From NCBI GenBank assembly GCA_016711295.1, contig JADJTE010000009.1, forward strand, positions 56,919-120,918: a stretch of DNA of 64,000 bases. Direction: 5' to 3'. This stretch comes from Sphingobacteriales bacterium. GTDB lineage: Bacteria > Bacteroidota > Bacteroidia > Chitinophagales > UBA2359. Each line of letters opens with the position of its first letter. Position 1 is the stretch's first letter. The notes under the pieces are model-generated. The model worked only from the letters and a program-made list of their open reading frames with translations. It searched no databases and had not been told where the DNA came from. The position numbers and the translations under genes were made by a program. Shown piece after piece: positions 3,293-48,637 of this stretch.

Positions 3293-3421
3293 GTAACTAT
3301 TTAGGGTATGGGGTTTTGGGTATGGGGTAATGGTCAATACCCATCTAATAATGCCCGAAATCATAGCATATTCGATTAGAAATAGCTATTCTTGGGGGCT
3401 GCCCCTAGGCTAAATAGTCAC
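3293..3421. mobile_element. MITE-like element, family 1 (GTAACTATTTAG terminal inverted repeats), copy a
   Basis: This 129-bp element starts gtaactatttagg and ends ggctaaatagtcac. It is flanked by a direct 8-bp duplication, ATTAAATC, at 3285-3292 and 3422-3429. It is similar along its length to 53746-53877. Confidence 0.75.
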
Positions 3422-3479
3422 ATTAAATCAATAATTCGTGCTTAAAACATTAATTTATATGATATTCATTATTCAAATT

Positions 3480-6541: not shown

Positions 6542-7880
6542 ATGTTTAAAAAATATTATCTATCTTTTTTTCTATCCAACCGATTTTTTGTTGGCATTTC
6601 TATATCTGTACTGCTATTGATGCTCGCCTATTTTTTCCCGCTCATTCTGAGCTTGGTCAAAATGGCGGTAGTGGCTTGGGCATACTTACTTTTATAGATA
6701 TATTGCTGCTTTATCGTTGGACAGAGGGCATAGAGGCAGAGCGCGTATTGCCCGACCGTTTTTCTAACGGCGACGACAATGACGTGCTTTGGCGCGTGGC
6801 TAATCAATATCCATATACCATCAAGCTCGAAATCATAGACGAACTACCCATACAGTTTCAAAACCGAGATGCCCGACATCGCTGTCACCTGCCGAGCGAC
6901 CAATCACAGTCCATACGCTATACGTTGCGCCCCACCGAGCGCGGGCAATATTTTTTTGGCGCACTCAATATATTTGCCGCCAGCCCCTTGGGTTTAGTAC
7001 AACGCCGCTACCGATTTGCCGCCGAAGGCAAAATGATAGCCGTCTATCCATCGTTTTTGCAAATGCGCCAATACGAGCTATTAGCCGCTACCAACCGCCT
7101 GCAAGAGTATGGCATCAAACGCATTAGGCGCATCGGGCAGAGTATGGAGTTTGAACAGATACGCGAATACGTATCGGGCGACGACTACCGAAACGTCAAT
7201 TGGAAAGCATCAGCCCGCCACAACGATATAATGGTCAATCAGTATGAAGACGAAAAAGCACAACCTATTGTCAATGTGATAGATAAGGGGCGCGTAATGC
7301 GTATGCCTTTCGAACAATTATCGCTACTCGATTATGCCATCAATGCCACTTTGGTTATTGCTAATATAGCCCTGAAAAAGGCGACAAAGCGGGCTTGCTC
7401 ACCTTTTCGCACCAAATAGGCAGTATGGTAGCTCCCGCCAAACGCGGCGACCAACTATGGCGCATACAGGAAACGCTGTACCAAGAAAGTACCAACTTTT
7501 TGGAAACGGATTACGAAAAATTGTTCATAACAGTGCGCCGGCAATTGAACCACCGCTGTTTGCTCTTGCTCTATACCAATTTTGAAAGCCTCGCCGCCTT
7601 GCATCGGCAATTGCCATTTTTGCGGCGTTTGGCAAAATCCCACCTCTTAGTCGTTATATTTTTTGAAAATACCGAACTACGCCACCTCACCAACGCCCCC
7701 GCCTTAGACATAGAAGAGGTATATCAGAAAACCATTGCCGAAAAAATGGCATTTGAGAAACGGCAAATCGTCAAAGAATTGCAGGCACACGGCATTCAGA
7801 GCATACTAACTACCCCACAAAACCTAAGCGTCAATGCGCTGAATAAATATTTAGAATTGAAAGCAAGAGGCATGATTTAA
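6542..7880 (+). CDS. DUF58-family protein (MoxR-associated, vWA-like); two frame breaks as assembled
   Basis: Three pieces join. The first is 6542 to about 6690 (MFKKYYLSFFLSNRFFVGISISVLLLML..., two hydrophobic helices). The other two are ORFs 6676-7419 and 7395-7880. The motif ...REYVSGDDYRNVNWKASARHN... is typical of DUF58. Confidence 0.7.
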
Positions 7881-35322: not shown

Positions 35323-36603
35323 ATGATTAGCTACGATAAATTTAGCCTTGACAATGGCTTGCGCATCGTCGTACACCACGACCCCAATACGCCCTTAGCT
35401 ACTGTCAATATCTTATATGATGTAGGTTCGCGCGATGAAAGCGAAAGCCGCACAGGTTTTGCTCACCTTTTTGAACACCTCATGTTCGAAGGCTCCGTCA
35501 ATATACCCGATTATGACGAACACGTACACTTAGCGGGCGGCGAGTCTAATGCCTTTACCAGCAGCGATATGACCAATTATTATATAACGCTGCCCGTACA
35601 TAATATCGAAACTGCCTTTTGGCTCGAATCAGACCGTATGCTTAGTTTGGCTTTTAGCGAAGAAGCACTCGCCGTCCAAAAAGGCGTAGTCTGTGAAGAA
35701 TTTAAAGAACATTATATCAACCAACCCTATGGCGATTGGATGCACAAAATGCGTGCCTTATGTTTTACAACCCACCCTTATAAATGGCTGACTATCGGCA
35801 AAGAATTGTCACATATAGAACAAGCCACCCTATCCGATGTACGCGCTTTCTTTTTCCAACACTATCGCCCCAATAATGCCATTTTGTGCGTAGCAGGTAA
35901 TGTGACGAGCGAGCAAGTGCGCCAATTAGCCCAAAAATGGTTTGGTGATATCCCGCCGTCCGAAAAACCTTACCACCGCCAGCTACCCGCCGAACCTGCA
36001 CAAACCACGTTTCGCAGCCAACACATCTATGCCAATGTACCTATCGACGCGCTGTATATGGCATTCCATATCGGCGATAGATTAAGCCCCAGCTATCACC
36101 CCACCGCTTTTATCTGCGATATATTGTCGAGCGGCGCATCAGGGCGGCTATACCAACATTTAGTAAAAGACCAAACCCTATTCAGCAGCCTGCACGCTTA
36201 TTCGTGGGACGAACACGACCCAGGATTGCTGTATATCGAGGGCAAACTCAATAAAGGTGTGACATTAGAAAGTGCCGAAACAGCTATCTGGCACGAACTC
36301 GAACAATTGTGCCAAATGCCTGTATCGGAAGACGAACTTGGCAAAGTGCGCAACAAGGTCGAGGCGGCTATCGTCTTCAATGAAGTAGGACTGAGCGACC
36401 GCGCTTTTTCGCTCGCTTACTACGAGCTGTTGGGCGATATTGACGAAATAAACAACGAAATTGACAAATACCTGCGCGTGACGGCTGCCGACATACAGCA
36501 GACGGCGCAGCAAATTTTTAGCCGCGAAAACTGCTCCGTTCTCTATTACCACGCCCAGCCCCCCAGCGAAGCCGCCGAACAAAATGCCGATGCAAGCACC
36601 TAA
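35323..36603 (+). CDS. M16 (pitrilysin/insulinase) family zinc peptidase
   Basis: The HxxEH zinc motif is present (GFAHLFEHLMFEGS). The ORF is 426 aa. Confidence 0.85.
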   Translation: MISYDKFSLDNGLRIVVHHDPNTPLATVNILYDVGSRDESESRTGFAHLFEHLMFEGSVNIPDYDEHVHLAGGESNAFTSSDMTNYYITLPVHNIETAFWLESDRMLSLAFSEEALAVQKGVVCEEFKEHYINQPYGDWMHKMRALCFTTHPYKWLTIGKELSHIEQATLSDVRAFFFQHYRPNNAILCVAGNVTSEQVRQLAQKWFGDIPPSEKPYHRQLPAEPAQTTFRSQHIYANVPIDALYMAFHIGDRLSPSYHPTAFICDILSSGASGRLYQHLVKDQTLFSSLHAYSWDEHDPGLLYIEGKLNKGVTLESAETAIWHELEQLCQMPVSEDELGKVRNKVEAAIVFNEVGLSDRAFSLAYYELLGDIDEINNEIDKYLRVTAADIQQTAQQIFSRENCSVLYYHAQPPSEAAEQNADAST

Positions 36604-37493
36604 TATACCCACCGAGCACAAAGCGGGATTTGTCAATATAATAGGCAAACCCAACGTAGGAAAATCAACCCTGATGAACGCCTTAGTCGGCGAGCGGCTA
36701 TCTATCATCACCTCCAAAGCCCAAACTACGCGCCACCGCATATTGGGCATTGTCAATGGCGACGATTTCCAAATCGTATATTCCGACACGCCGGGCGTAC
36801 TAAAACCCGCCTACAAAATGCAGGAAGCGATGATGCGTTTTGTCTATCAATCATTTGACGATGCCGATATATTGTTGGTGATGGCTGATGCATCTGAAAA
36901 AAAAGACCGCGACATAGCCTTAGTTGCCGACAAAATCAACCGCAGCGAGGCAAAGGTGATTTTTCTGCTCAACAAAGTCGATTTGGTCACCGCTGCCGAT
37001 GCCGAACAACAATTAGCCTATTGGCGAAGCCAAATAAAAGCAACTGCCTACTTGCCCGTTTCCGCACTTACGGGGCATAATTTGACCGCGCTTTTCGACA
37101 CCATTCTATCCAATTTGCCTTTGTCGCCGCCTTATTATCCCGACAAAGAAGAATTGACCGACCGCCCCGAACGCTTTTTCGTATCCGAAATTATCCGAGA
37201 AAAAATATTGCTCACCTACCACCAAGAAATACCTTATTCGGTAGAAGTCGTCATCGATAGCTTTAAGGAAGACGACGAAATGGTGCGGATAGAAGCCATC
37301 ATTTGGGCAAATCGCGAATCCCAAAAACCTATCCTCATCGGCAAAAATGGCAAAAACTTGACCAAAGTAGGTACGGCTGCCCGAATGGATATAGAGCGAT
37401 TTTTGGAAAAAAGTCTATTTAGGCTTGCGCATCAAGGTGCGCGAAGGATGGCGCGAAAACGAAACCTTGCTCAAAAATTTAGGCTATCAATAA
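36584..37493 (+). CDS. era: GTPase Era; frame break in A-run 37407-37412
   Basis: It carries GKPNVGKSTLMN, DTPG, NKVD and a KH domain. Removing one A from the run gives ...FLEKVYLGLRIKVREGWRENETLLKNLGYQ*, with the stop at 37491-37493. Confidence 0.9.
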
Positions 37494-37517
37494 ATATTCT
37501 GCTTCGTACTATATTAT

Positions 37518-38080
37518 ATGTGGCATATAAACCAAGACCAAGCCCTATTTTTAGACCGAGACGGCGTTATCAACCGCAAAATAGAGCAAGGCTATGTGTT
37601 GCGTTGGTCCGAATTTGAATTTATGCCCAATGCCCTAAGCGCGATAGCTCATCTGAGCCGTTTGTTTGGGCGCATTATCGGGGTAACGAACCAACAATGT
37701 GTAGGCAAGCGCATGATGTTGGAAACCGACCTAATAGCCCTGCTATACCAAATGACCGATTGCGTGGCGCAACACGGCGGGCGATTCGATGCGTTCTATT
37801 ATTGCCCACATCTGGCTTACGAAAATTGTGGCTGCCGCAAACCTGCTATCGGCATGGCGCGACAAGCACAAGCCGACTACCCCGACATCGATTTGAAACG
37901 AGTCCATTATGGTCGGCGATTCGGTGAGCGACCTACAATTTGGTCCGGGGCGCGGGTATGCAGACGGTATTTATACACCACCAAGCACCCAGCTCAGATG
38001 CCGAAAATGCCCATTTAGCCCATGCACAATACGATTCGCTGGCTGCCTTTGCCGCAGATTGCCGCAGCGCGACCACATAG
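37518..38080 (+). CDS. gmhB: D,D-heptose 1,7-bisphosphate phosphatase-like HAD-IIIA hydrolase; two frame breaks
   Basis: The N-terminal part reads ALFLDRDGVIN...VTNQ...CRKP. ORF 37909 continues with MVGDSVSDLQFG. My own translation of a third frame gives the C-terminus ...GAGMQTVFIHHQAPSSDAENAHLAHAQYDSLAAFAADCRSATT*, with the stop at 38078-38080. Confidence 0.75.
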
Positions 38081-38269
38081 AACGATTGGGCGTTTCAAGG
38101 TCTAAACCCGTGGGATTTCGCCCCTAATGGGGCTTTGGCTTTGATGCTGTTTGGGTTTTCTATTAGCAGGTCGCTCCTACGGAGCTATTAGGAGGATGCC
38201 CTTAAATGGGGCGGTGGCTATCTCTTTGGCGGTCAAGCCGTAAAGCTGGCAAACCATGCAGTCTATTTG
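38064..38269 (+). repeat. ~206-bp direct repeat, copy 1 (partner 48178-48390)
   Basis: It aligns with 48178-48390 (gcagcgc..cacatagaacgattgg..cgtttcaag...gccgtaaag.tggcaaaccatgcagtctatttg) at high identity with small indels. It begins inside the last codons of gmhB. Confidence 0.8.
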
Positions 38270-38367: not shown

Positions 38368-38870
38368 TATTAGGATTTCGCCCCTAATGGGGCTTTGGCT
38401 TTGATGATATTTTCGTTTGTTATTAGGATTTCGCCCCTATGGGGCTTTGGCTTTGGTGATTGTTATTCTTTTCTATTAGCAGGTCGCTCCTACGAAGCTA
38501 TTAGGAGGACATCCCGATGGGGTTTCGTTTCGATGATGTTTTCGTTTGTTATTAGGATTTCGCCCATACGGGGCTTTGTTGGTGATTGTTATTCTTTTCT
38601 ATTAGCATGTCGCTCCTACGAAGCTATTAGGAGGACATCCCGATGGGGTTTCGTTTCGATGATGTTTTCGTTTGTTATTAGGATTTCGCCCATACGGGGC
38701 TTTGTTGGTGATTGTTATTCTTTTCTATTAGCATGTCGCTCCTACGGAGCTATTAGGAGGGCACCCCGATGGGGTTTCGTTTCGATGATGTTTTCGTTTG
38801 TTATTAGGATTTCGCCCCTAATGGGGCTTTGGCTTTGGTGCTGTTTGGGTTTTCTATTAAAATTTCGTAA
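38368..38870. repeat. tandem repeat array A (~126-bp unit, about 3.5 full copies plus degenerate copies)
   Basis: The motif ttattaggatttcgccc recurs at 38368, 38420, 38549, 38675 and 38801. Each unit is built from short hairpin modules (gcccc-n-ggggc, gctcctacggagc, cccgatgggg). The 175-aa ORF 38395-38922 is repeat-derived. Confidence 0.85.
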
Positions 38871-38940: not shown

Positions 38941-39426
38941 GTGTTGCAAGTAAAAATATTTACCATACCCATTACCGATGATGGTCGATTTACAGACGAG
39001 TTGAACAAATTTTTGCGTTCGCACAAAATTTTGGAGGTACAACAGCAACTAAGCACCCATGACAACGGTGCGTTTTGGTGTTTTTGTATCAGATACTTGC
39101 CCCATACCTTGACCCATATCGAGGCAGGGCGGAGCGGCAAAATCGACTACCGCGAAACGCTGAACGAGGCAGCATTCAAAAAATTTTCGCGTTTTCGCGA
39201 AATCCGAAAACAGCTGGCTGCCGAAGACGGCGTGCCCGCCTATGCCGTATTTACGGACGAAGAGTTGGCAAACCTATCTCAGCTTGCTGCGCTCGACCTC
39301 AAGGGGCTTAAAAGCATAAAGGGCATCGGCGATAAAAAAGCCGACCGCTACGGCGCAAAGATGCTCAACATATACCACCAAACCTTATTGTCGGCATCGC
39401 CCGACGATGATTCGGTACAGCCATGA
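38941..39426 (+). CDS. DGR accessory protein with C-terminal HRDC domain
   Basis: This is a 161-aa ORF with a GTG start. The C-terminal half, FKKFSRFREIRKQLAAEDGVPAYAVFTDEELANLSQ...LKSIKGIGDKKADRYGAKML, matches the RecQ/RNase D HRDC pattern. Its stop overlaps the RT start (ATGA). Confidence 0.8.
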   Translation: MLQVKIFTIPITDDGRFTDELNKFLRSHKILEVQQQLSTHDNGAFWCFCIRYLPHTLTHIEAGRSGKIDYRETLNEAAFKKFSRFREIRKQLAAEDGVPAYAVFTDEELANLSQLAALDLKGLKSIKGIGDKKADRYGAKMLNIYHQTLLSASPDDDSVQP

Positions 39427-40418
39427 AACGAGCCGGTTTTTTAGTGGGGCAAATTGCCGATATGAACAATTTGTATCTGGCATTTTGGAAAGCCAAACGC
39501 GGCAAAAGTACGCGCGAAGGAGTGCTGAACTACCAGACTGACCTGTTGCCCAACCTGCAATCACTGAGTGCCGAGATAATGAACGGCACTTTGCAACTTG
39601 GAAATTATCATTATTTCACGGTTTACGAACCCAAAGAACGCAAAATTTGTGCCGCCTCGTTCAAAGAGCGCGTGTTGCACCATGCCTTGATGAACGTATG
39701 TCACCCCTATTTCGAGCGGCGGCAAATTTTTGACAGCTATGCCAGCCGTCCCCAAAAAGGCATACACGCCGCGCTACGACGCGCGCAACAATTTGGCCGC
39801 CGATACGAATGGTATCTGAAATTGGATGTCCGGCATTTTTTTGACAGCATCGACCACGATATCGTCAAACAACAGCTATCGAGGCTATTCAAAGATACCC
39901 AATTGCTCGATATCTGGCACCGAATATTGGATAGCTACGAAGTCCAGCCCGGCAAAGGCGTGCCCATCGGCAACCTAAGCAGCCAATACATATCCAATCA
40001 TTACCTATCAGGCATAGACCGATATGCCTACCAAGTGGCCGGCGCACAAGGCTATGTACGCTACATGGACGATATGATACTGTGGCATAACGACAAAAAC
40101 GCCTTGCTATCGGCTCTGTCACTGATTGAGGGCTACCTGCACGAACGCCTGAAACTACGGCTCAAACCCGCCATAGTGGGACGAACGGCACAAGGACTGC
40201 CGTTTTTGGGCTTTGTCGTTCGTCGTTTCGACCTAGGGCTGCAACGAGCTGGAAAGCAACGCTACTACAAAAAATTGAAACGGCTTTGTTGCTGCTTGAA
40301 ACACCAACAACTAAGCCCCATTGATTTTCAACGCCGTGTGCAATGCCTTGCCTCCTTTGTTCGGCATGCTCGTTCGCTAAAATTTCGGCAAAAAACCGTT
40401 CGGAGGCTGCGTTGCTAA
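39423..40418 (+). CDS. DGR-type reverse transcriptase
   Basis: This is a 331-aa ORF. It has the catalytic YVRYMDDMILW and the DGR-diagnostic [ILV]GxxxSQ motif (PIGNLSSQ). There is no maturase or endonuclease domain. A TR/VR pair lies adjacent. Confidence 0.9.
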   Translation: MKRAGFLVGQIADMNNLYLAFWKAKRGKSTREGVLNYQTDLLPNLQSLSAEIMNGTLQLGNYHYFTVYEPKERKICAASFKERVLHHALMNVCHPYFERRQIFDSYASRPQKGIHAALRRAQQFGRRYEWYLKLDVRHFFDSIDHDIVKQQLSRLFKDTQLLDIWHRILDSYEVQPGKGVPIGNLSSQYISNHYLSGIDRYAYQVAGAQGYVRYMDDMILWHNDKNALLSALSLIEGYLHERLKLRLKPAIVGRTAQGLPFLGFVVRRFDLGLQRAGKQRYYKKLKRLCCCLKHQQLSPIDFQRRVQCLASFVRHARSLKFRQKTVRRLRC

Positions 40419-40523
40419 CCCTTAAAAAAAGTTGCCGCACCCACCAAAAAAGCCCCCAAAAGTTGCATCTATTGTTCCAGCGCACCAGCTTTCTTTGAGG
40501 ATGGGGCTATACAACAAACTCAA

Positions 40524-40585
40524 GAAAAAAACAAGCCCGGCTTTCAAACCACGCTATCCGGCAGGGCTTACTAACGGGGCTTGTT
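40524..40585 (-). terminator. Rho-independent terminator-like hairpin downstream of TR (minus strand)
   Basis: The minus strand reads aacaagccc...(about 34-nt structured loop)...gggcttgtt followed by a T7 run (plus-strand A-run 40525-40531). It lies about 95-150 nt 3' of the TR end. Confidence 0.5.
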
Positions 40586-40676
40586 CCATCAAAAAAAACA
40601 TTTCGCCCTCGCTTGAAAGCACAAGGGCAGGAAAACATCGCTGGACACAGCGGGACATCCATCCGTTTGCTTTGTG

Positions 40677-40798
40677 CTGGAAGGCAGAGCCAGCCGAAAA
40701 CCGTAGTTGTTGTTGCGGTTAGCGGGCGTGTTGTTGTTGCGGTTAGCCATCCGGCAGTTGACGGCGTTGTTGTTCCACGAGCCGCCGCGCAACACACG
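40677..40798 (-). repeat. DGR template repeat (TR), 122 nt
   Basis: It aligns with VR 41049-41170. The minus strand encodes (in frame with the VR) [39 protein letters not shown], with 12 AAC codons. The ORFs called here (40589-40795, 40507-40806) are TR artefacts. Confidence 0.88.
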
Positions 40799-40898
40799 CG
40801 GTGCAAAGGCCTTATGCGATATTACCCAATCGAAAAAACGATTTTTATATTAAAAAATATACAATATGTATTTTTTGAAAAAATTTTTTGCCTACAGG

Positions 40899-40906
40899 CA
40901 AAGCTA
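40899..40906 (-). promoter_or_regulatory. candidate -7 box (TAGCTTTG on minus strand) upstream of TR
   Basis: The plus strand reads caaagcta. It matches TAnnTTTG about 100 nt 5' of the TR in minus orientation and overlaps a small hairpin (ttgcc-tgt-aggcaa). Confidence 0.3.
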
Positions 40907-40926
40907 TCTAACAGCCCAACAGCCTA

Positions 40927-41001
40927 ACTTTTCGAACCATTGCAGCCCACTTGCAGCCGCTCCGCTTGGCTGCCACGTCGGGCTGCAATAGCTCGAAAAG
41001 T
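40927..41001 (-). other. long inverted repeat (hairpin/cruciform) 3' of the VR
   Basis: The arms are acttttcgaaccattgcagccc (40927-40948) and gggctgcaatagctcgaaaagt (40980-41001), complementary at 19 of 22 positions. An inner gcagcc/ggctgc stem is also present. It lies 48-122 nt beyond the VR end. Confidence 0.7.
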
Positions 41002-41041
41002 ATTCTTCTTTTGCACAAAGCAAACAGACGGATGAACCCAA

Positions 41042-43021
41042 CTATGCCCTGGAAGGCAGAGCCAGCCGAAAACCGCAGTCGGTGAAGTGGTCGGCGGGCG
41101 CGTCGGTGTCGCGGCGAGCCAAACGGCAGCGGACGGCGAGGTTGCCCCACGAGCCGCCGCGCAACACACGGTAATTGCCCGATTGTGGACCGTGCGGGTT
41201 GGCTTGGGCTTCGGCTTTGTAGGAACCATACCAGTCTTGGCACCACTCCCATACATTGCCGCTCATGTCGTACAAGCCCAATTCGTTGGGTTTTTTCAGC
41301 CCCACGATTTGTGTTGAGCCGCCGCTGTTGACCGAGAAATGGGCTACATCTCCCAGTTCGTCGCTGCCGGCATATTTGTAGCCCTTGCTTTTTTGTCCGC
41401 CGCGGGCGCCATATTCCCATTCGGCTTCGGTGAGCAGGCGGTAGCCCGCGGGCAGCCCTTTTTCGACTGTCTGGGCGTTTAGTTTGCGGCAAAACTCTTG
41501 GGCATTGTCCCAGCTGACGTTGTCTACAGGCAGGCGGTTGCTGCCCCCAAAATGGCTGGGGTTACTGCCCATGACGGCGTAGTATTGGGCTTGGGTCACG
41601 GGGTATCTGCTGATATAAAAGCCCGATAGCGTGACCTCGTGTACGGGTTTTTCGCTGTCGCAGGCTTCGTCGTCGGTGCCGCCCATCCGGAAGGTGCCGC
41701 CTTCTACCCATACCATGTCGAGCGGAGTGCCATTTATATCTGCCACAAAATCGGCATCTTTGACCGGGGCTTCGGGTTCTGAGGTGGGTTCAGGACTATA
41801 GTCGTAGTTTTCGAACGTGATGGTGTGGGTGTGTGCATCGGTTTGGCGGGTGCGGTAGCTTTCTTCGTAGTCCAGCTGGTGTTGCTGCTCAATGAGCGTG
41901 AGTATATCACTGACCAAAAATAGGTCATTGAAGTATCGTTTTCTGCCCTGAAGCTGCTTGTCGGTTTCGTATACGTCGTCTTTAGTGGTGTTTGTTTTGT
42001 GCGTAACGTCTGTTTTGGCTTTGCCATCAAGTGCTCCCCAAAACGCCTTGACATCGGCATCTACGTTGCTATGGTGGTCGGTGTCGTGGCTATAGTGGTG
42101 TTCGTTTTTGGTTTTGTCCACTTGAAGCTCGATTACATCGGGTTCGTAGTCTTCTTTGCTCAACTTCTCTTTGGCAATATAAGCTTGGGAACTTTGCAGC
42201 AAAACCTCTGACTCCTTGTCTATGATGTTCATAAATTTTTCTACCAAGCCACTGAGGAGTTTGTTCGATACATCAGGCCGGTCTATCACTTGCTTGACGG
42301 CAATACTCCAGCCATCTTTTGCCAGCATTAATCGAACATCTTTGCGCTGTACCATTTTGCCTGGTGCCTCGCCTTTCAGAGAATCAGAATATTTAGTGCC
42401 CGCCACTTGTTTTGCCGTAATGGTGGTATAGTTGGTCTCGAAGGTGACTATTTGGGCATCGTATTGGCACTTGACGACAATACCCTCGGCGTTTTTCAGC
42501 ACAAAGTCCGCGTCGTCTTTGCTCATGAGCAGCGTCACGATGGCTTGTTGGTGCCCTGCGGTGCTGTCGAGTTGGTTCTGCGTGCTGCTAATGGATAGGG
42601 GAAACTCCTCGCCGTTGCAGGTAAAGTTCGTAAATTGTAGGTTATAGACCGTTTGGGCTTGGAGGCGCGTGGTGCCAAGTTGGTCATTGTCTTGGGTACT
42701 GGCAGCCAACAAGTTTTTTATTGCGCGGCTATTGAACGCTTCGTCGTTGAGGACGATATACACTTTGACGAGATATTGGTCGGGCTTGCGGGTTTTGGTC
42801 ATGGCGATTTTAAACCCGCCCTTGCCGTCGTGGGCAGGCAAGAAGAGGGGCAGATACTCGTATAGGCGGATGGTGTCGTCAGATTGTCCGCTTTTGGCAA
42901 CTACCTTGTTGATGGGGTGCGCTGGTGGTAGCGGCTTGCCGCCGTTGTAGCACATCGGGCTCAGTAGGATTACGTCGAGGGTTTTGGGCAAGTCGGTGGT
43001 TGTAATAAGTTTATTGGACAT
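41042..43021 (-). CDS. DGR target (variable) protein: unassigned ~440-aa N-terminal region + C-terminal FGE-sulfatase/C-type-lectin-fold domain carrying the VR
   Basis: This is a 659-aa ORF. The C-terminal ~210 aa, MVWVEGGTFRMGG...HEVTLSGFYISRYPVTQAQY...WEWCQDWY...[38 protein letters not shown], match the FGE-like fold used by many DGR variable proteins. The N-terminus MSNKLITTTDLPKT has no signal peptide. Confidence 0.88.
   Translation of the reverse strand: MSNKLITTTDLPKTLDVILLSPMCYNGGKPLPPAHPINKVVAKSGQSDDTIRLYEYLPLFLPAHDGKGGFKIAMTKTRKPDQYLVKVYIVLNDEAFNSRAIKNLLAASTQDNDQLGTTRLQAQTVYNLQFTNFTCNGEEFPLSISSTQNQLDSTAGHQQAIVTLLMSKDDADFVLKNAEGIVVKCQYDAQIVTFETNYTTITAKQVAGTKYSDSLKGEAPGKMVQRKDVRLMLAKDGWSIAVKQVIDRPDVSNKLLSGLVEKFMNIIDKESEVLLQSSQAYIAKEKLSKEDYEPDVIELQVDKTKNEHHYSHDTDHHSNVDADVKAFWGALDGKAKTDVTHKTNTTKDDVYETDKQLQGRKRYFNDLFLVSDILTLIEQQHQLDYEESYRTRQTDAHTHTITFENYDYSPEPTSEPEAPVKDADFVADINGTPLDMVWVEGGTFRMGGTDDEACDSEKPVHEVTLSGFYISRYPVTQAQYYAVMGSNPSHFGGSNRLPVDNVSWDNAQEFCRKLNAQTVEKGLPAGYRLLTEAEWEYGARGGQKSKGYKYAGSDELGDVAHFSVNSGGSTQIVGLKKPNELGLYDMSGNVWEWCQDWYGSYKAEAQANPHGPQSGNYRVLRGGSWGNLAVRCRLARRDTDAPADHFTDCGFRLALPSRA
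41049..41170 (-). repeat. DGR variable repeat (VR), 122 nt
   Basis: There are 22 mismatches to the TR, all within 41076-41146. Nineteen are at TR-adenine positions on the coding strand. The 27-nt and 24-nt flanks are identical. Confidence 0.88.
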
Positions 43022-43188: not shown

Positions 43189-43437
43189 TTATCGCCGCTC
43201 TTCGGAACGTACTTGGTTATAGTATTGGGTCGAAACCATACCCATTAGCCATAAGGCGTGGGTCTCAGCCAATTTTTGGCTCATACCTTCTGCTTTGCCA
43301 TCGGCTATGTGTTGGCGAATTCGGTTTTGGTCGGATTCGTTGAGGGCGTTGGTGGCATTGAGCAGGTACTTGCCAATTTCTCTGGCAGTAAAGAAGCGAC
43401 CTACAAAGTCTATGGCAGTAATAAATGCGTTCAGCAT
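43189..43437 (-). CDS. small helical hypothetical protein upstream of the DGR target gene
   Basis: This is an 82-aa ORF on the same strand as the target, 167 nt upstream. I see no recognisable motif, and its coding status is uncertain. Confidence 0.4.
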   Translation of the reverse strand: MLNAFITAIDFVGRFFTAREIGKYLLNATNALNESDQNRIRQHIADGKAEGMSQKLAETHALWLMGMVSTQYYNQVRSEERR

Positions 43438-43599: not shown

Positions 43600-44408
43600 G
43601 GCGAACCATTTTGATGCTGCAAAGGTAAATCGGAGCTACAACACTAAGGGACTTAATCCGAAAAGGATTATATTTTTTTTCGGACCCGTCAAGGTCATGA
43701 ATGACTGCTTGAAACAATGCCCTATTTGTCTATATACCGAGAGGCGAACCGTTTTGATGCTGCAAAGATAAATCGGAGCTACAACGCTAAGGGACTTAAT
43801 CCGAAAAGGATTAGAATTTTCTCTTCGGAAATGCCCTATTTGTCTATATACCGAGAGGCGAACCGTTTTGATGCTGCAAAGATAAATCGGAGCTACAACG
43901 CTAAGGGACTTAATCCGAAAAGGATTAGAATTTTCTCTTCGGAAATGCCCTATTTGTCTATATACCGAGAGGCGAACCGTTTTGATGCTGCAAAGGTAAA
44001 TCGGAGTTACAACGCTAAGGGACTTAATCCGAAAAGGATTATATTTTTTTTCTGACTCGTCAAGGTCATGAATGACTGCTTGAAACAATGCCCTATTTGT
44101 CTATATACCGAGAGGCGAACCGTTTTGATGTTGCAAAGGTAAATCGGAGCTACAACGCTAAGGGACTTAATCCGAAAAGGATTAGAATTTTCTCTTCGGA
44201 AATGCCCTATTTGTCTATACACCGAGAGGCGAACCGTTTTGATGCTGCAAAGGGAAATCAGAGCTACAACGCTAAGGGACTTAATCCGAAAAGGATTAGA
44301 ATTTTCTCTTCGGAAATGCCCTATTTGTCTATATACCGAGTGGCGAACTGTTTTGATGCTGCAAAGGGAAATCGGACACGAGCATCGGAAATCCTTTTTG
44401 GATTAAGC
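43600..44408. repeat. tandem repeat array B (7 core copies; spacing 143/114/114/143/114/114, i.e. a 371-bp super-unit x2)
   Basis: The core ggcgaaccgttttgatgctgcaaag.taaatcggagctacaacgctaagggacttaatccgaaaaggatta starts at 43600, 43743, 43857, 43971, 44114, 44228 and 44342 (the last is partial). The array ends with an inverted copy of the taatcc/ggatta hairpin at 44388-44408. The ORFs called here are repeat-derived. Confidence 0.9.
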
Positions 44409-48177: not shown

Positions 48178-48390
48178 AGCAGCGCAAGCACATAGAACGA
48201 TTGGCGTTTCAAGTTCAAACTCGTGGGATTTCGCCCCTATGGGGCTTTGACTTTGATGTTGTTTGGGTTTTCTATTAGCATGTCGCTCCTACGGAGCTAT
48301 TAGGATGCCGCCCTTAAATGGGGCTATCGCTACGGTGGCTATCTCTTCGGCGGTTAAGCCGTAAAGTTGGCAAACCATGCAGTCTATTTG
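48178..48390 (+). repeat. ~206-bp direct repeat, copy 2 (partner 38064-38269)
   Basis: See copy 1. The minus strand here also carries a gene remnant, ...KALERQIDCMVCQLYGLTAEEIATV... Confidence 0.8.
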
Positions 48391-48548: not shown

Positions 48549-48637
48549 CGGAAAAGGAGGGATTCGAACCCCCGGTGCCTATTACTAAGCACACCTGATT
48601 TCGAGTCAGGCCCATTCAACCGCTCTGGCACTTTTCC
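48549..48637 (-). tRNA. tRNA-Ser (anticodon CGA)
   Basis: The minus strand reads GGAAAAG-TG-CCAGAGCGGTTGAATGG-G-CCTGA CTCGAAA TCAGG, then a long variable arm (GTGC..GCAC), then GGGGG TTCGAAT CCCTC-CTTTTCC-G. This gives a 7-bp acceptor stem, the T-loop TTCGAAT and a class II variable arm. Confidence 0.92.

Follow-up and report, generated by a model that had tools for sequence, protein, structure and literature searches.

An HRDC-type diversity-generating retroelement with an antisense template repeat in an uncultured member of the Bacteroidota

In the 64-kb stretch of DNA analysed here (the window), a reverse transcriptase (RT) gene lies close to two similar 122-nt repeats, one of which ends a 659-aa gene. 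This raises the question of whether these elements form a complete diversity-generating retroelement (DGR) and whether it has been at work. The first-pass annotation had proposed a complete DGR, and every defining part was found to be present. We consider it highly likely that the locus is a chromosomal, recently active DGR of the HRDC-accessory clade, which is widespread in Bacteroidota. The features are as follows.

38941..39426, plus strand: HRDC-domain accessory gene, 161 aa (Pfam HRDC, 1.9e-14)
39423..40418, plus strand: DGR reverse transcriptase, 331 aa (Pfam RVT_1, 4.3e-18)
40517..40679, minus strand: conserved structured RNA domain of ~160 nt, immediately 3' of the template repeat
40677..40798, minus strand (its sense strand): template repeat (TR), 122 nt, with 12 AAC codons
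40799..40886, minus strand: AT-rich spacer upstream of the TR, the presumed site of a separate TR promoter
40887..40902, minus strand: terminator-like hairpin and T-run past the target gene
40927..41001, no strand assigned: 22-bp inverted repeat with a 31-nt loop, 41 nt beyond the target stop; candidate terminator or cruciform
41013..41048, minus strand: 3' flank of the variable repeat, an inverted copy of the first nucleotides after the TR; candidate target-site address
41042..43021, minus strand: target gene, 659 aa, with an FGE-sulfatase/CLec C-terminus
41049..41170, minus strand: variable repeat (VR), codons 618–658 of 659, with its variable core at 41076–41146
41060..41719, minus strand: C-terminal FGE-sulfatase/CLec domain of the target, residues 435–654 (Pfam, 8.2e-53)
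41732..43021, minus strand: rare N-terminal domain of the target, residues 1–430, with only 5 homologues among 1.84 billion representatives

The HRDC stop codon overlaps the RT start through an ATGA (read directly: ...CCATGAAACG), and the coordinates, motifs and overlap annotated earlier were all reproduced. The RT translation contains both YMDD and IGNLSSQ, the YxDD and (I/V)GxxxSQ motifs of the DGR lineage. Its top match in the PDB was the RT of BPP-1 (bRT, 8ub7; E=1.5e-38), in which IGSLTSQ aligned with IGNLSSQ and YMDD with YMDD; a group II intron RT reached only 2.9e-14, and none of the retron, DRT and group II models reached its cut-off. With bRT as the best solved structure and HRDC-RT loci as the 80 nearest relatives, the expected placement within the DGR clade was borne out. 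Among the accessory genes known to adjoin DGR RTs (Avd, HRDC, MSL or CH1), HRDC is the one found here; a Pfam scan covering only the four cassette ORFs (HRDC, RT, target and an 82-aa ORF) gave no match to Avd. The cassette is flanked by housekeeping genes (SRP54, RecX, M16 peptidase and Era), not phage genes. In public annotation, its genes are labelled 'group II intron RT domain protein', 'HRDC protein' and 'formylglycine-generating enzyme family protein'.

A repeat search paired 40670–40798 with 41042–41170 (129 nt, 81%). Base-by-base comparison of TR 40677–40798 with VR 41049–41170 returned the 22 mismatches and the 11 of 12 recoded AAC codons reported earlier, all mismatches lying within 40704–40774. 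Nineteen of them sit at a minus-strand adenine of the TR, the exceptions being 40716, 40721 and 40751; given 28 adenines in the 122-nt TR, this enrichment is highly significant (Fisher p=1e-12). The count of 19 held, but the change at 40750 (Met to Leu) proved to be a TR allele difference and not adenine mutagenesis. The final 27 nt of TR and VR are identical, with 0 mismatches, an invariant IMH-like shared 3' end. Downstream of the VR only, this end is followed by inverted-repeat elements, namely the inverted copy of the TR flank (41013–41034) and the 22-bp hairpin, the two arms of which have their sole copies within the window there. The VR occupies the last 41 codons of the target, in a CLec/FGE-sulfatase domain, which like the Ig domain is a fold that tolerates variation, as the annotation had it; its codons were given as 617–657, which recounting corrected by one. 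No further VR-like copies were found in the 64-kb window.

Natural alleles were compared. The RT is nucleotide-identical in 8 other assemblies. The window TR differs from the population TR allele at 40716, 40721, 40750 and 40751, and in six independent assemblies with nucleotide-identical RT, the TR allele bears the VR bases at the three non-adenine sites. With this allele, 18/18 mismatches fall at adenines, which accounts for the three apparent blemishes of the first-pass annotation. Three VR alleles were found on contigs sharing the identical RT and the same TR, with 18/18, 13/13 and 13/14 mismatches at adenines, or 44 of 45 pooled; the single non-adenine change, carried by one allele, counts against our explanation. 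Thus, the wider TR/VR decay named earlier as a refutation was not seen in related assemblies, and the predicted restriction of VR variation to TR adenines held between natural samples, one base excepted, with TR and RT constant. The differing VR alleles across assemblies are natural evidence of DGR activity. Short-read contigs repeatedly break at or close to VR and TR.

The four substitutions clustered in the window TR are absent from its VR; hence, the last rewriting in this lineage would predate them, or the assembly is wrong there. They would count against present-day activity in the source genome, the activity being that seen between assemblies. There is a sizeable chance, somewhat short of even, that they arose in assembling or polishing a long-read metagenome bin and do not represent a biological allele. 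Relative to three short-read assemblies that are identical to one another, the window shows homopolymer and other indels typical of long-read consensus errors (37407, 37903, 37945, 38915, 42314/42317 and 43045), and no gene product with the window TR allele is recorded elsewhere. However, all four are base substitutions rather than indels, and the bases they introduce are absent at those positions from every observed VR allele, so that mis-mapped VR reads cannot be their source.

The 80 closest RT relatives (L001–L080) are Bacteroidota sequences of ~50% identity. An HRDC ORF immediately precedes the RT, in the same orientation, in 80/80, and an adenine-biased TR/VR pair was detectable in 66/80. 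Both flanks were available at 65 loci, and in their 76 TR/VR pairs TR adenines accounted for 1330 of 1393 mismatches (95.5%). The clade has hundreds of members (532 confirmed matches), whose order is fixed as target-VR / HRDC / RT / TR / RNA domain; the window deviates from this order. DGRs of the HRDC type are common and already catalogued, and the one described here is an ordinary member.

Immediately 3' of the TR, the relatives revealed an RNA domain with three covarying helices, a GUAGUA/CGAA internal loop and a terminal U-run. Compensatory changes occur at 18 of its 20 consensus pairs. The domain is present in 76/80 relatives and had no match in Rfam (Rfam 15). A covariance model (R1) built without the window gave a single match in the 64 kb, full length and directly after the TR (55.2 bits, E=6e-14). 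By sequence, the window therefore belongs to the HRDC clade, though its layout is rearranged. The domain is likely an RT-binding/priming scaffold. In Avd-type DGRs, stem-loops just downstream of the TR recruit the RT complex and set cDNA start and stop (bioRxiv 10.1101/2023.10.23.563531). The position just 3' of the TR is shared, whereas the HRDC-clade domain has its own consensus (GCCGGAUGGC hairpin, CUGAACAG, GUAGUA...CGAA loop); that survey covered only 278 DGRs with Avd.

The R1 matches lie on the RT strand, downstream of the RT, in all 76 relatives with a match, but on the opposite strand in the window and the near-identical L081–L083; here TR, VR and target are all antisense to the RT. 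Because the TR is antisense and downstream of the terminator-like hairpin, it needs its own start or read-through, and a sigma-70 scan upstream of it found no match, which counts against our explanation. TR and RT on different strands have already been noted for DGRs (Wu et al., 2018, PMC5758913). These observations bear on a further alternative, a decaying or silenced element that diversified its target in the past and is now non-functional, with a drifting TR uncoupled from RT expression by the inversion. The antisense TR, the silent promoter scan, the four differences uncopied into the VR and the occurrence of the same VR allele in five assemblies all fit this view. In contrast, the HRDC, RT and target ORFs, noted earlier as intact despite frame breaks elsewhere, are indeed so, as is the RNA domain, in an assembly with frequent indels elsewhere; with four substitutions in 36 nt and two in the remaining 4.7 kb, the pattern does not fit neutral drift; and the inverted layout is common to assemblies with three different VR alleles, indicating that this layout has been active. 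We regard decay as improbable. The antisense TR of the window also indicates that the RNA can work without co-transcription with the RT.

Under the reading of a recently active DGR, the intact, ATGA-coupled HRDC-RT operon on the plus strand would supply the enzyme, and a separate minus-strand transcript would carry the 122-nt TR and the ~160-nt domain recognized by comparison. By homology to BPP-1, the RT with the HRDC protein would bind the RNA domain, begin cDNA at the TR 3' end and place random nucleotides opposite the 28 template adenines. The cDNA would then replace the VR within the final 41 codons of the target, recoding the 12 AAC and three other codons on the putative ligand-binding face of the C-type-lectin-fold domain, for ~8e15 possible proteins (15^12 x 4^3).

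How the VR, and not the TR, is chosen as recipient may be indicated by its flank. In the window, 41013–41034 is complementary to 40656–40677 at 20 of 22 nt, a match equalled by 0/100 shuffles; the part nearest the VR (41035–41048) matches the TR flank poorly, which counts against our explanation. Across the clade, the inverted copy spans the first 18–36 nt after the TR. Complementarity exceeded the 95th percentile of non-cognate pairs in 58/76 TR-VR pairs, compared with 1/76 in a same-sense control; locus-specific flank bases were shared at 57%, compared with 25% for permuted partners; and at multi-VR loci the inverted copy was found in 17/20 TR-VR pairs. We tentatively propose that the recipient site in the HRDC clade is set by an RNA address, in which the 18–36 nt after the TR pair with the inverted DNA copy after the VR. 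Much like an Okazaki fragment, the RNA–cDNA hybrid would anneal as a single continuous strand to the sense strand of VR and flank, and the VR would be chosen since the RNA segment directly after the TR recurs, inverted, behind every VR.

A related proposal exists for BPP-1. The RNA between TR and priming site remains covalently linked to the cDNA, and its pairing with DNA at the VR 3' end was proposed, which would account for the VR as recipient (Naorem et al., 2017, PMC5703328). The geometry is exactly the same, TR flank then cDNA forming the antisense strand of VR flank and VR. However, the BPP-1 version is speculative and involves a few extra base pairs with the IMH, whereas the complementarity here covers 18–36 nt, falls outside the TR/VR homology and co-varies over dozens of loci. 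DGR cDNA integration and VR-vs-TR discrimination were still described as unknown in 2026 (PMC12875486); if the address model is correct, this co-variation would be the first comparative evidence on the integration step of mutagenic retrohoming, and elements could be retargeted simply by moving the VR flank. The clade permits a simple compensatory-mutation test of RNA pairing.

The inverted copy could instead act as structure, forming a cruciform at the VR flank whose antisense strand would present a DNA counterpart of the RNA hairpin bound by RT/HRDC, or that just keeps the DNA open. In the consensus RNA structure, the flank segment forms a hairpin. In BPP-1, function depends on the structure of the stem downstream of the VR but tolerates changes to its sequence (PMC3240598), which speaks against sequence pairing in that element, and the 2026 reconstitution study favours a function in maintaining a single-stranded target (PMC12875486). 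Yet a purely structural role needs no shared locus-specific bases between the hairpins, contrary to the excess over permuted partners, and recognition of a specific loop predicts the reverse of what was seen, namely TR-flank/VR-flank identity peaking in the 5' arm with its minimum in the loop. A structural role has a fair chance but is less likely than not.

Compared with the BPP-1 DGR (mtd-avd-TR-brt), the window shares a homologous RT, adenine-specific TR-to-VR differences, a VR located C-terminally in a C-type-lectin-fold protein, a 3' stretch that is free of A and identical between TR and VR, an inverted repeat downstream of the VR and structured RNA downstream of the TR. It differs in having HRDC rather than Avd and a chromosomal rather than phage-borne location; the TR follows the RT in the HRDC clade (antisense in the window) but precedes it in BPP-1; the RNA domain differs in sequence and fold; and the VR-side element is a 20–36-nt inverted TR-flank copy instead of an 8-bp GC stem. 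Similarity between the BPP-1 spacer and VR hairpin was marginal (score 23, null 14.9 +/- 2.5).

The locus adds one more well-documented naturally active DGR, from an uncultured member of the Bacteroidota (Sphingobacteriales/Chitinophagales). Of broader value is the clade, which combines a fixed HRDC-RT-TR order with a strongly covarying RNA domain outside Rfam and locus-specific flank complementarity. The HRDC DGRs of 'Architecture C' (Wu et al., 2018, PMC5758913; e.g. Treponema denticola) likewise have HRDC adjoining the RT and a CLec-type target, and their gene order varies. That survey held just 14 HRDC-type DGRs (4%) in 11 layouts, whereas the relatives described here form one coherent Bacteroidota clade.

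The first-pass annotation had described a diversity-generating retroelement (DGR) with an HRDC ORF, a reverse transcriptase (RT), a template repeat (TR) and a target gene bearing the variable repeat (VR), and this observation of the parts stands. The three genes, taken from a six-frame ORF list and compared with Pfam, are as follows:

38941-39426, plus strand: HRDC ORF, 161 aa (Pfam HRDC, 1.9e-14)
39423-40418, plus strand: RT ORF, 331 aa (Pfam RVT_1, 4.3e-18)
41042-43021, minus strand: target ORF, 659 aa (Pfam FGE-sulfatase, 8.2e-53, residues 435-654)

The reported ATGA overlap of the HRDC and RT ORFs was read in the sequence. A repeat search returned 40670-40798 and 41042-41170 as the sole long direct repeat of the region, and base-by-base comparison of the TR (40677-40798) with the VR (41049-41170) reproduced the 22 mismatches counted earlier, all within 40704-40774. 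As had been claimed, 19 of these correspond to adenine on the TR minus strand, the remaining three being 40716, 40721 and 40751 (Fisher p=1e-12 for adenine enrichment, with 28 adenines per 122 nt of TR), and 11 of the 12 template AAC codons in the target frame are recoded. The VR covers codons 618-658 of the target, so the earlier numbering (617-657) was off by one codon. No further VR-like sequence was found in the 64-kb window.

Among all chains of the Protein Data Bank (PDB), the best match of the RT was the reverse transcriptase of Bordetella phage BPP-1 (bRT; 8ub7, E=1.5e-38, residues 2-286), with IGNLSSQ aligned opposite IGSLTSQ and YMDD opposite YMDD. Group II intron and retron RTs ranked below bRT, at 1e-14 or worse, and none of the NCBIfam and PADLOC models for group II introns, retrons and defence RTs matched at cut-off. 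The exact protein is on record at NCBI, from a Sphingobacteriales MAG, as a 'group II intron reverse transcriptase domain-containing protein'. A scan using one genome per species yielded 532 confirmed RT relatives, the best 80 of which share 45-53% identity with the window RT and belong nearly all to Bacteroidota, many to Saprospiraceae. An HRDC ORF lies immediately upstream of the RT on the same strand in all of these best relatives (80/80), and a TR/VR scan detected adenine-biased pairs in 66/80; in the 76 pairs (65 loci) for which both flanks were available, template adenines account for 1330 of the 1393 mismatches (95.5%). These results place the RT in a clade of HRDC-type DGRs that is both large and coherent. 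Its earlier identification as a DGR RT was borne out, bRT being its nearest relative in the PDB and the best 80 relatives being HRDC-RT loci. We conclude that the window element is a genuine, complete DGR of the HRDC-type 'Architecture C' (Wu et al., 2018; PMC5758913).

An identity look-up added eight other contigs that carry a nucleotide-identical RT gene; their sources are two NCBI assemblies and six runs. The sequencing runs containing the element are SRR30641127, SRR30303872, SRR17347220, SRR30503393/4 and SRR17332001. The TR of all six contigs that reach it differs from the window TR at exactly four positions (40716, 40721, 40750 and 40751), at each of which this common TR allele carries the base of the VR; the three non-adenine mismatches therefore represent a change in the window TR. 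Relative to the common TR allele, every difference of the window-type VR is at an adenine (18/18), and differences at adenines account for 13/13 in a second VR allele (L084, a short-read contig of the same locus) and 13/14 in a third (L085, and L095 from another run). The possibility named earlier, that the three mismatches are part of wider TR/VR decay in related genomes, is not supported by these counts, and the common TR allele rules out sloppy mutagenesis or decay as their source. Of the 19 adenine mismatches, 18 were upheld, and the one at 40750 (Met to Leu) belongs with the window TR changes. The three VR alleles sit on an otherwise 99.8% identical background and differ almost only at template adenines; they are direct natural evidence of mutagenic retrohoming. 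On this population evidence, the DGR has been recently active.

Short-read contigs end repeatedly within or beside the VR and TR, as expected if the population is heterogeneous. The contigs concerned (L084-L087 and L096-L100) end inside or just beyond the two repeats; L096 ends precisely on the first variable base, and L097-L100 stop ~90 nt upstream, near the polymorphic site 41281. These ends suggest within-sample heterogeneity. The 26-nt IMH, the invariant 3' end common to TR and VR, had 0 matches when the JGI metagenome collection was scanned.

TR and RT share one sense in every relative with a detectable TR/VR pair. The TR mostly lies 10-60 nt past the RT stop codon, in a few cases farther (L007 and L009, for example), and the most frequent gene order is target-VR, HRDC, RT, TR. 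In the window, TR and RT occupy opposite strands: along the minus strand come target-VR, a gap of 243 nt and the TR, a unit that converges on HRDC-RT. Since TR and RT on different strands have already been recorded (Wu et al., 2018; PMC5758913), the window layout is rare in the clade and not a new kind of element. The TR cassette of the window is complete but, being antisense to the RT, must be expressed apart from it. Two features precede the TR:

40902-40887, minus strand: terminator-like hairpin
between this hairpin and the TR, minus strand: AT-rich stretch of 88 nt, position of the candidate promoter

We infer a promoter in the AT-rich stretch. An RT 3' remnant upstream of the inverted TR, as a trace of rearrangement, was sought by tblastn of 120 RT relatives against 40419-41041, which gave only noise.

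Tens of thousands of DGRs have been catalogued, so the window DGR is ordinary when taken alone. The added value lies in a clade-wide RNA domain and in a co-varying complementarity of the TR and VR flanks; the two open the integration step to testing. The consensus of the RNA domain reads AGCUCA..GG.AA.GCCGGAUGGCU.CC.CUGAACAG..UGUCC-hairpin and continues with GGGGCAAA-variable hairpin-GCAGU.UUAGUAG...CGAA.GUUCUGC-U run; the CUGUGUCCAG region of the window RNA is the counterpart of the clade's CUGAACAG. RNAalifold predicted three helices, with compensatory double changes in 18/20 pairs. A covariance model trained on 43 relatives, with the window excluded, gave a single match in the 64-kb window (40517-40679, minus strand, full length, 55.2 bits, E=6e-14), which directly adjoins the TR on its 3' side. 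This model located the domain in 76/80 relatives, on the RT strand in 76/76, and antisense placement was confined to the near-identical assemblies of the window. The single-sequence fold of the TR RNA was not stabler than shuffles (z=-1.1), so support for the structure comes from covariation only. Rfam 15 gave no match in the TR region at gathering and permissive thresholds, and the survey published on RNA elements of DGRs covers Avd-type DGRs only (bioRxiv 10.1101/2023.10.23.563531). The only Rfam match in the window is a long-arm tRNA of 89 nt (48549-48637, minus strand). A Nitrosomonas MAG (L072) carries the RNA domain ~4 kb upstream of the RT (365-517), and a Bacteroidia locus (L076) carries two copies (52-186 and 7142-7276).

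A repeat search also revealed a 22-nt inverted repeat (40656-40677 vs 41013-41034; 20/22 complementary), one arm of which is the start of the RNA domain directly after the TR, while the other lies 14 nt past the VR; in relatives, the VR flank element mostly adjoins the VR directly. The best complementary flank segment beat at least 98 of 100 shuffles in 37/43 TR-VR pairs of the clade. When each TR flank was locally aligned with its own VR flank in reverse complement, scores averaged 31.7; non-cognate pairs averaged 14.2 and the same-sense control 12.3, and the cognate VR was the top-scoring partner in 28/41 loci. Across all 76 pairs, 58 scored above the non-cognate 95th percentile, compared with 1 in the same-sense control, and loci with several VRs carried the inverted flank copy in 17/20 pairs. 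Departures of the TR flank from the family consensus were matched in the VR flank in 57% of cases, against 25% (maximum 31%) with permuted partners. Flank identity peaks over the first ~18 nt and is lowest in the hairpin loop. Continued direct TR/VR homology was rejected as an explanation of the VR flank by the same-sense control (mean score 12.7 vs 31.9). The inverted repeat as the marker of an invertible TR cassette was discarded for want of evidence, the six assemblies that cover it all having the same orientation.

On the antisense strand at the target, the order is 5'-(TR-flank sequence)-(antisense VR)-3', which is collinear with an RNA-cDNA hybrid joining the RNA just 3' of the TR to cDNA. 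Such hybrids have been demonstrated in BPP-1, and the RNA part was proposed to pair with the VR IMH, which would explain directionality (Naorem et al., 2017; PMC5703328); the integration step was still called unknown in 2026 (PMC12875486). Target-primed reverse transcription by the antisense strand was rejected, because this strand has the sense of the TR flank and not its complement. In BPP-1 (L092, 2846-2866 vs 3418-3442), spacer nt ~22-41 (CTTGGCGGGCTGGCCTTTC) are similar to the VR stem-loop in reverse complement, with a score of 23 (null 14.9 ± 2.5, maximum 25 over 300 shuffles), only a marginal echo of the flank rule of the Bacteroidota clade, and the BPP-1 stem sequence tolerates change (Guo et al., 2011; PMC3240598). 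The BPP-1 system has been reconstituted in E. coli. We therefore take RNA-DNA pairing as the leading but unproven account of how the flanks may function, with a structural role of the VR flank as its rival.

A span of 36 nt contains all four of the window's TR substitutions; over the remaining 4.7 kb of the comparison there were two substitutions and several indels. The four changes do not fall at adenines. Two of them produce GCCGGAUGGC, which coincides with the clade consensus for the RNA domain's first hairpin. They may be a true allele, the product of gene conversion by another DGR of this genome, or a consensus error. A look-up of the 68-aa ORF spanning the window TR allele found no record, and one via the alternative HRDC start found only short contigs without the TR. 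Mis-mapped VR reads were rejected as the source, as no introduced base is present in any VR allele. Upstream of the cassette, the Era GTPase and GmhB-like hydrolase genes (36584-38018) are frame-broken relative to the near-identical assembly L081 by indels at 37407, 37903 and 37945; the window indels, these among them, have the look of errors in a long-read consensus, and the frame breaks fit such errors better than pseudogenes.

The C-terminal 225 residues of the target form a C-type-lectin-fold (CLec)/FGE-sulfatase domain common to the targets of 75/80 relatives. No counterpart of its N-terminal 430 residues (41732-43021) was present in the 80 related loci, and a word-indexed homologue search returned only the domain itself. 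An exhaustive search of 1.84 billion representative proteins recovered five homologues, two with a CLec ending and two with a Phage Tail Collar domain instead; these endings suggest that the N-terminal part is a carrier for swappable binding modules. Its AlphaFold2 model, on a shallow alignment, was poor (pLDDT 49.9, pTM 0.34). An 82-aa ORF (43189-43437, minus strand), which shares the target's strand and lies upstream of it, is present on 17/17 contigs with the locus; the 80 related loci lack it, and Pfam gave no match for it. The neighbours of the cassette are cellular (SRP54, RecX, M16 peptidase, Era, histidine-kinase-like, PKD-domain and TauE proteins). Two unrelated tandem arrays flank it, on the left at 38387-38831 (126-nt units, x3.5) and on the right at 43600-44376 (114-nt units in two blocks), with partial copies at 38113-38196 and 48226-48305, and spurious long ORFs cross both arrays. 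The left array aligns between the window and L081 solely as overlapping, shifted segments, which suggests a difference in copy number.
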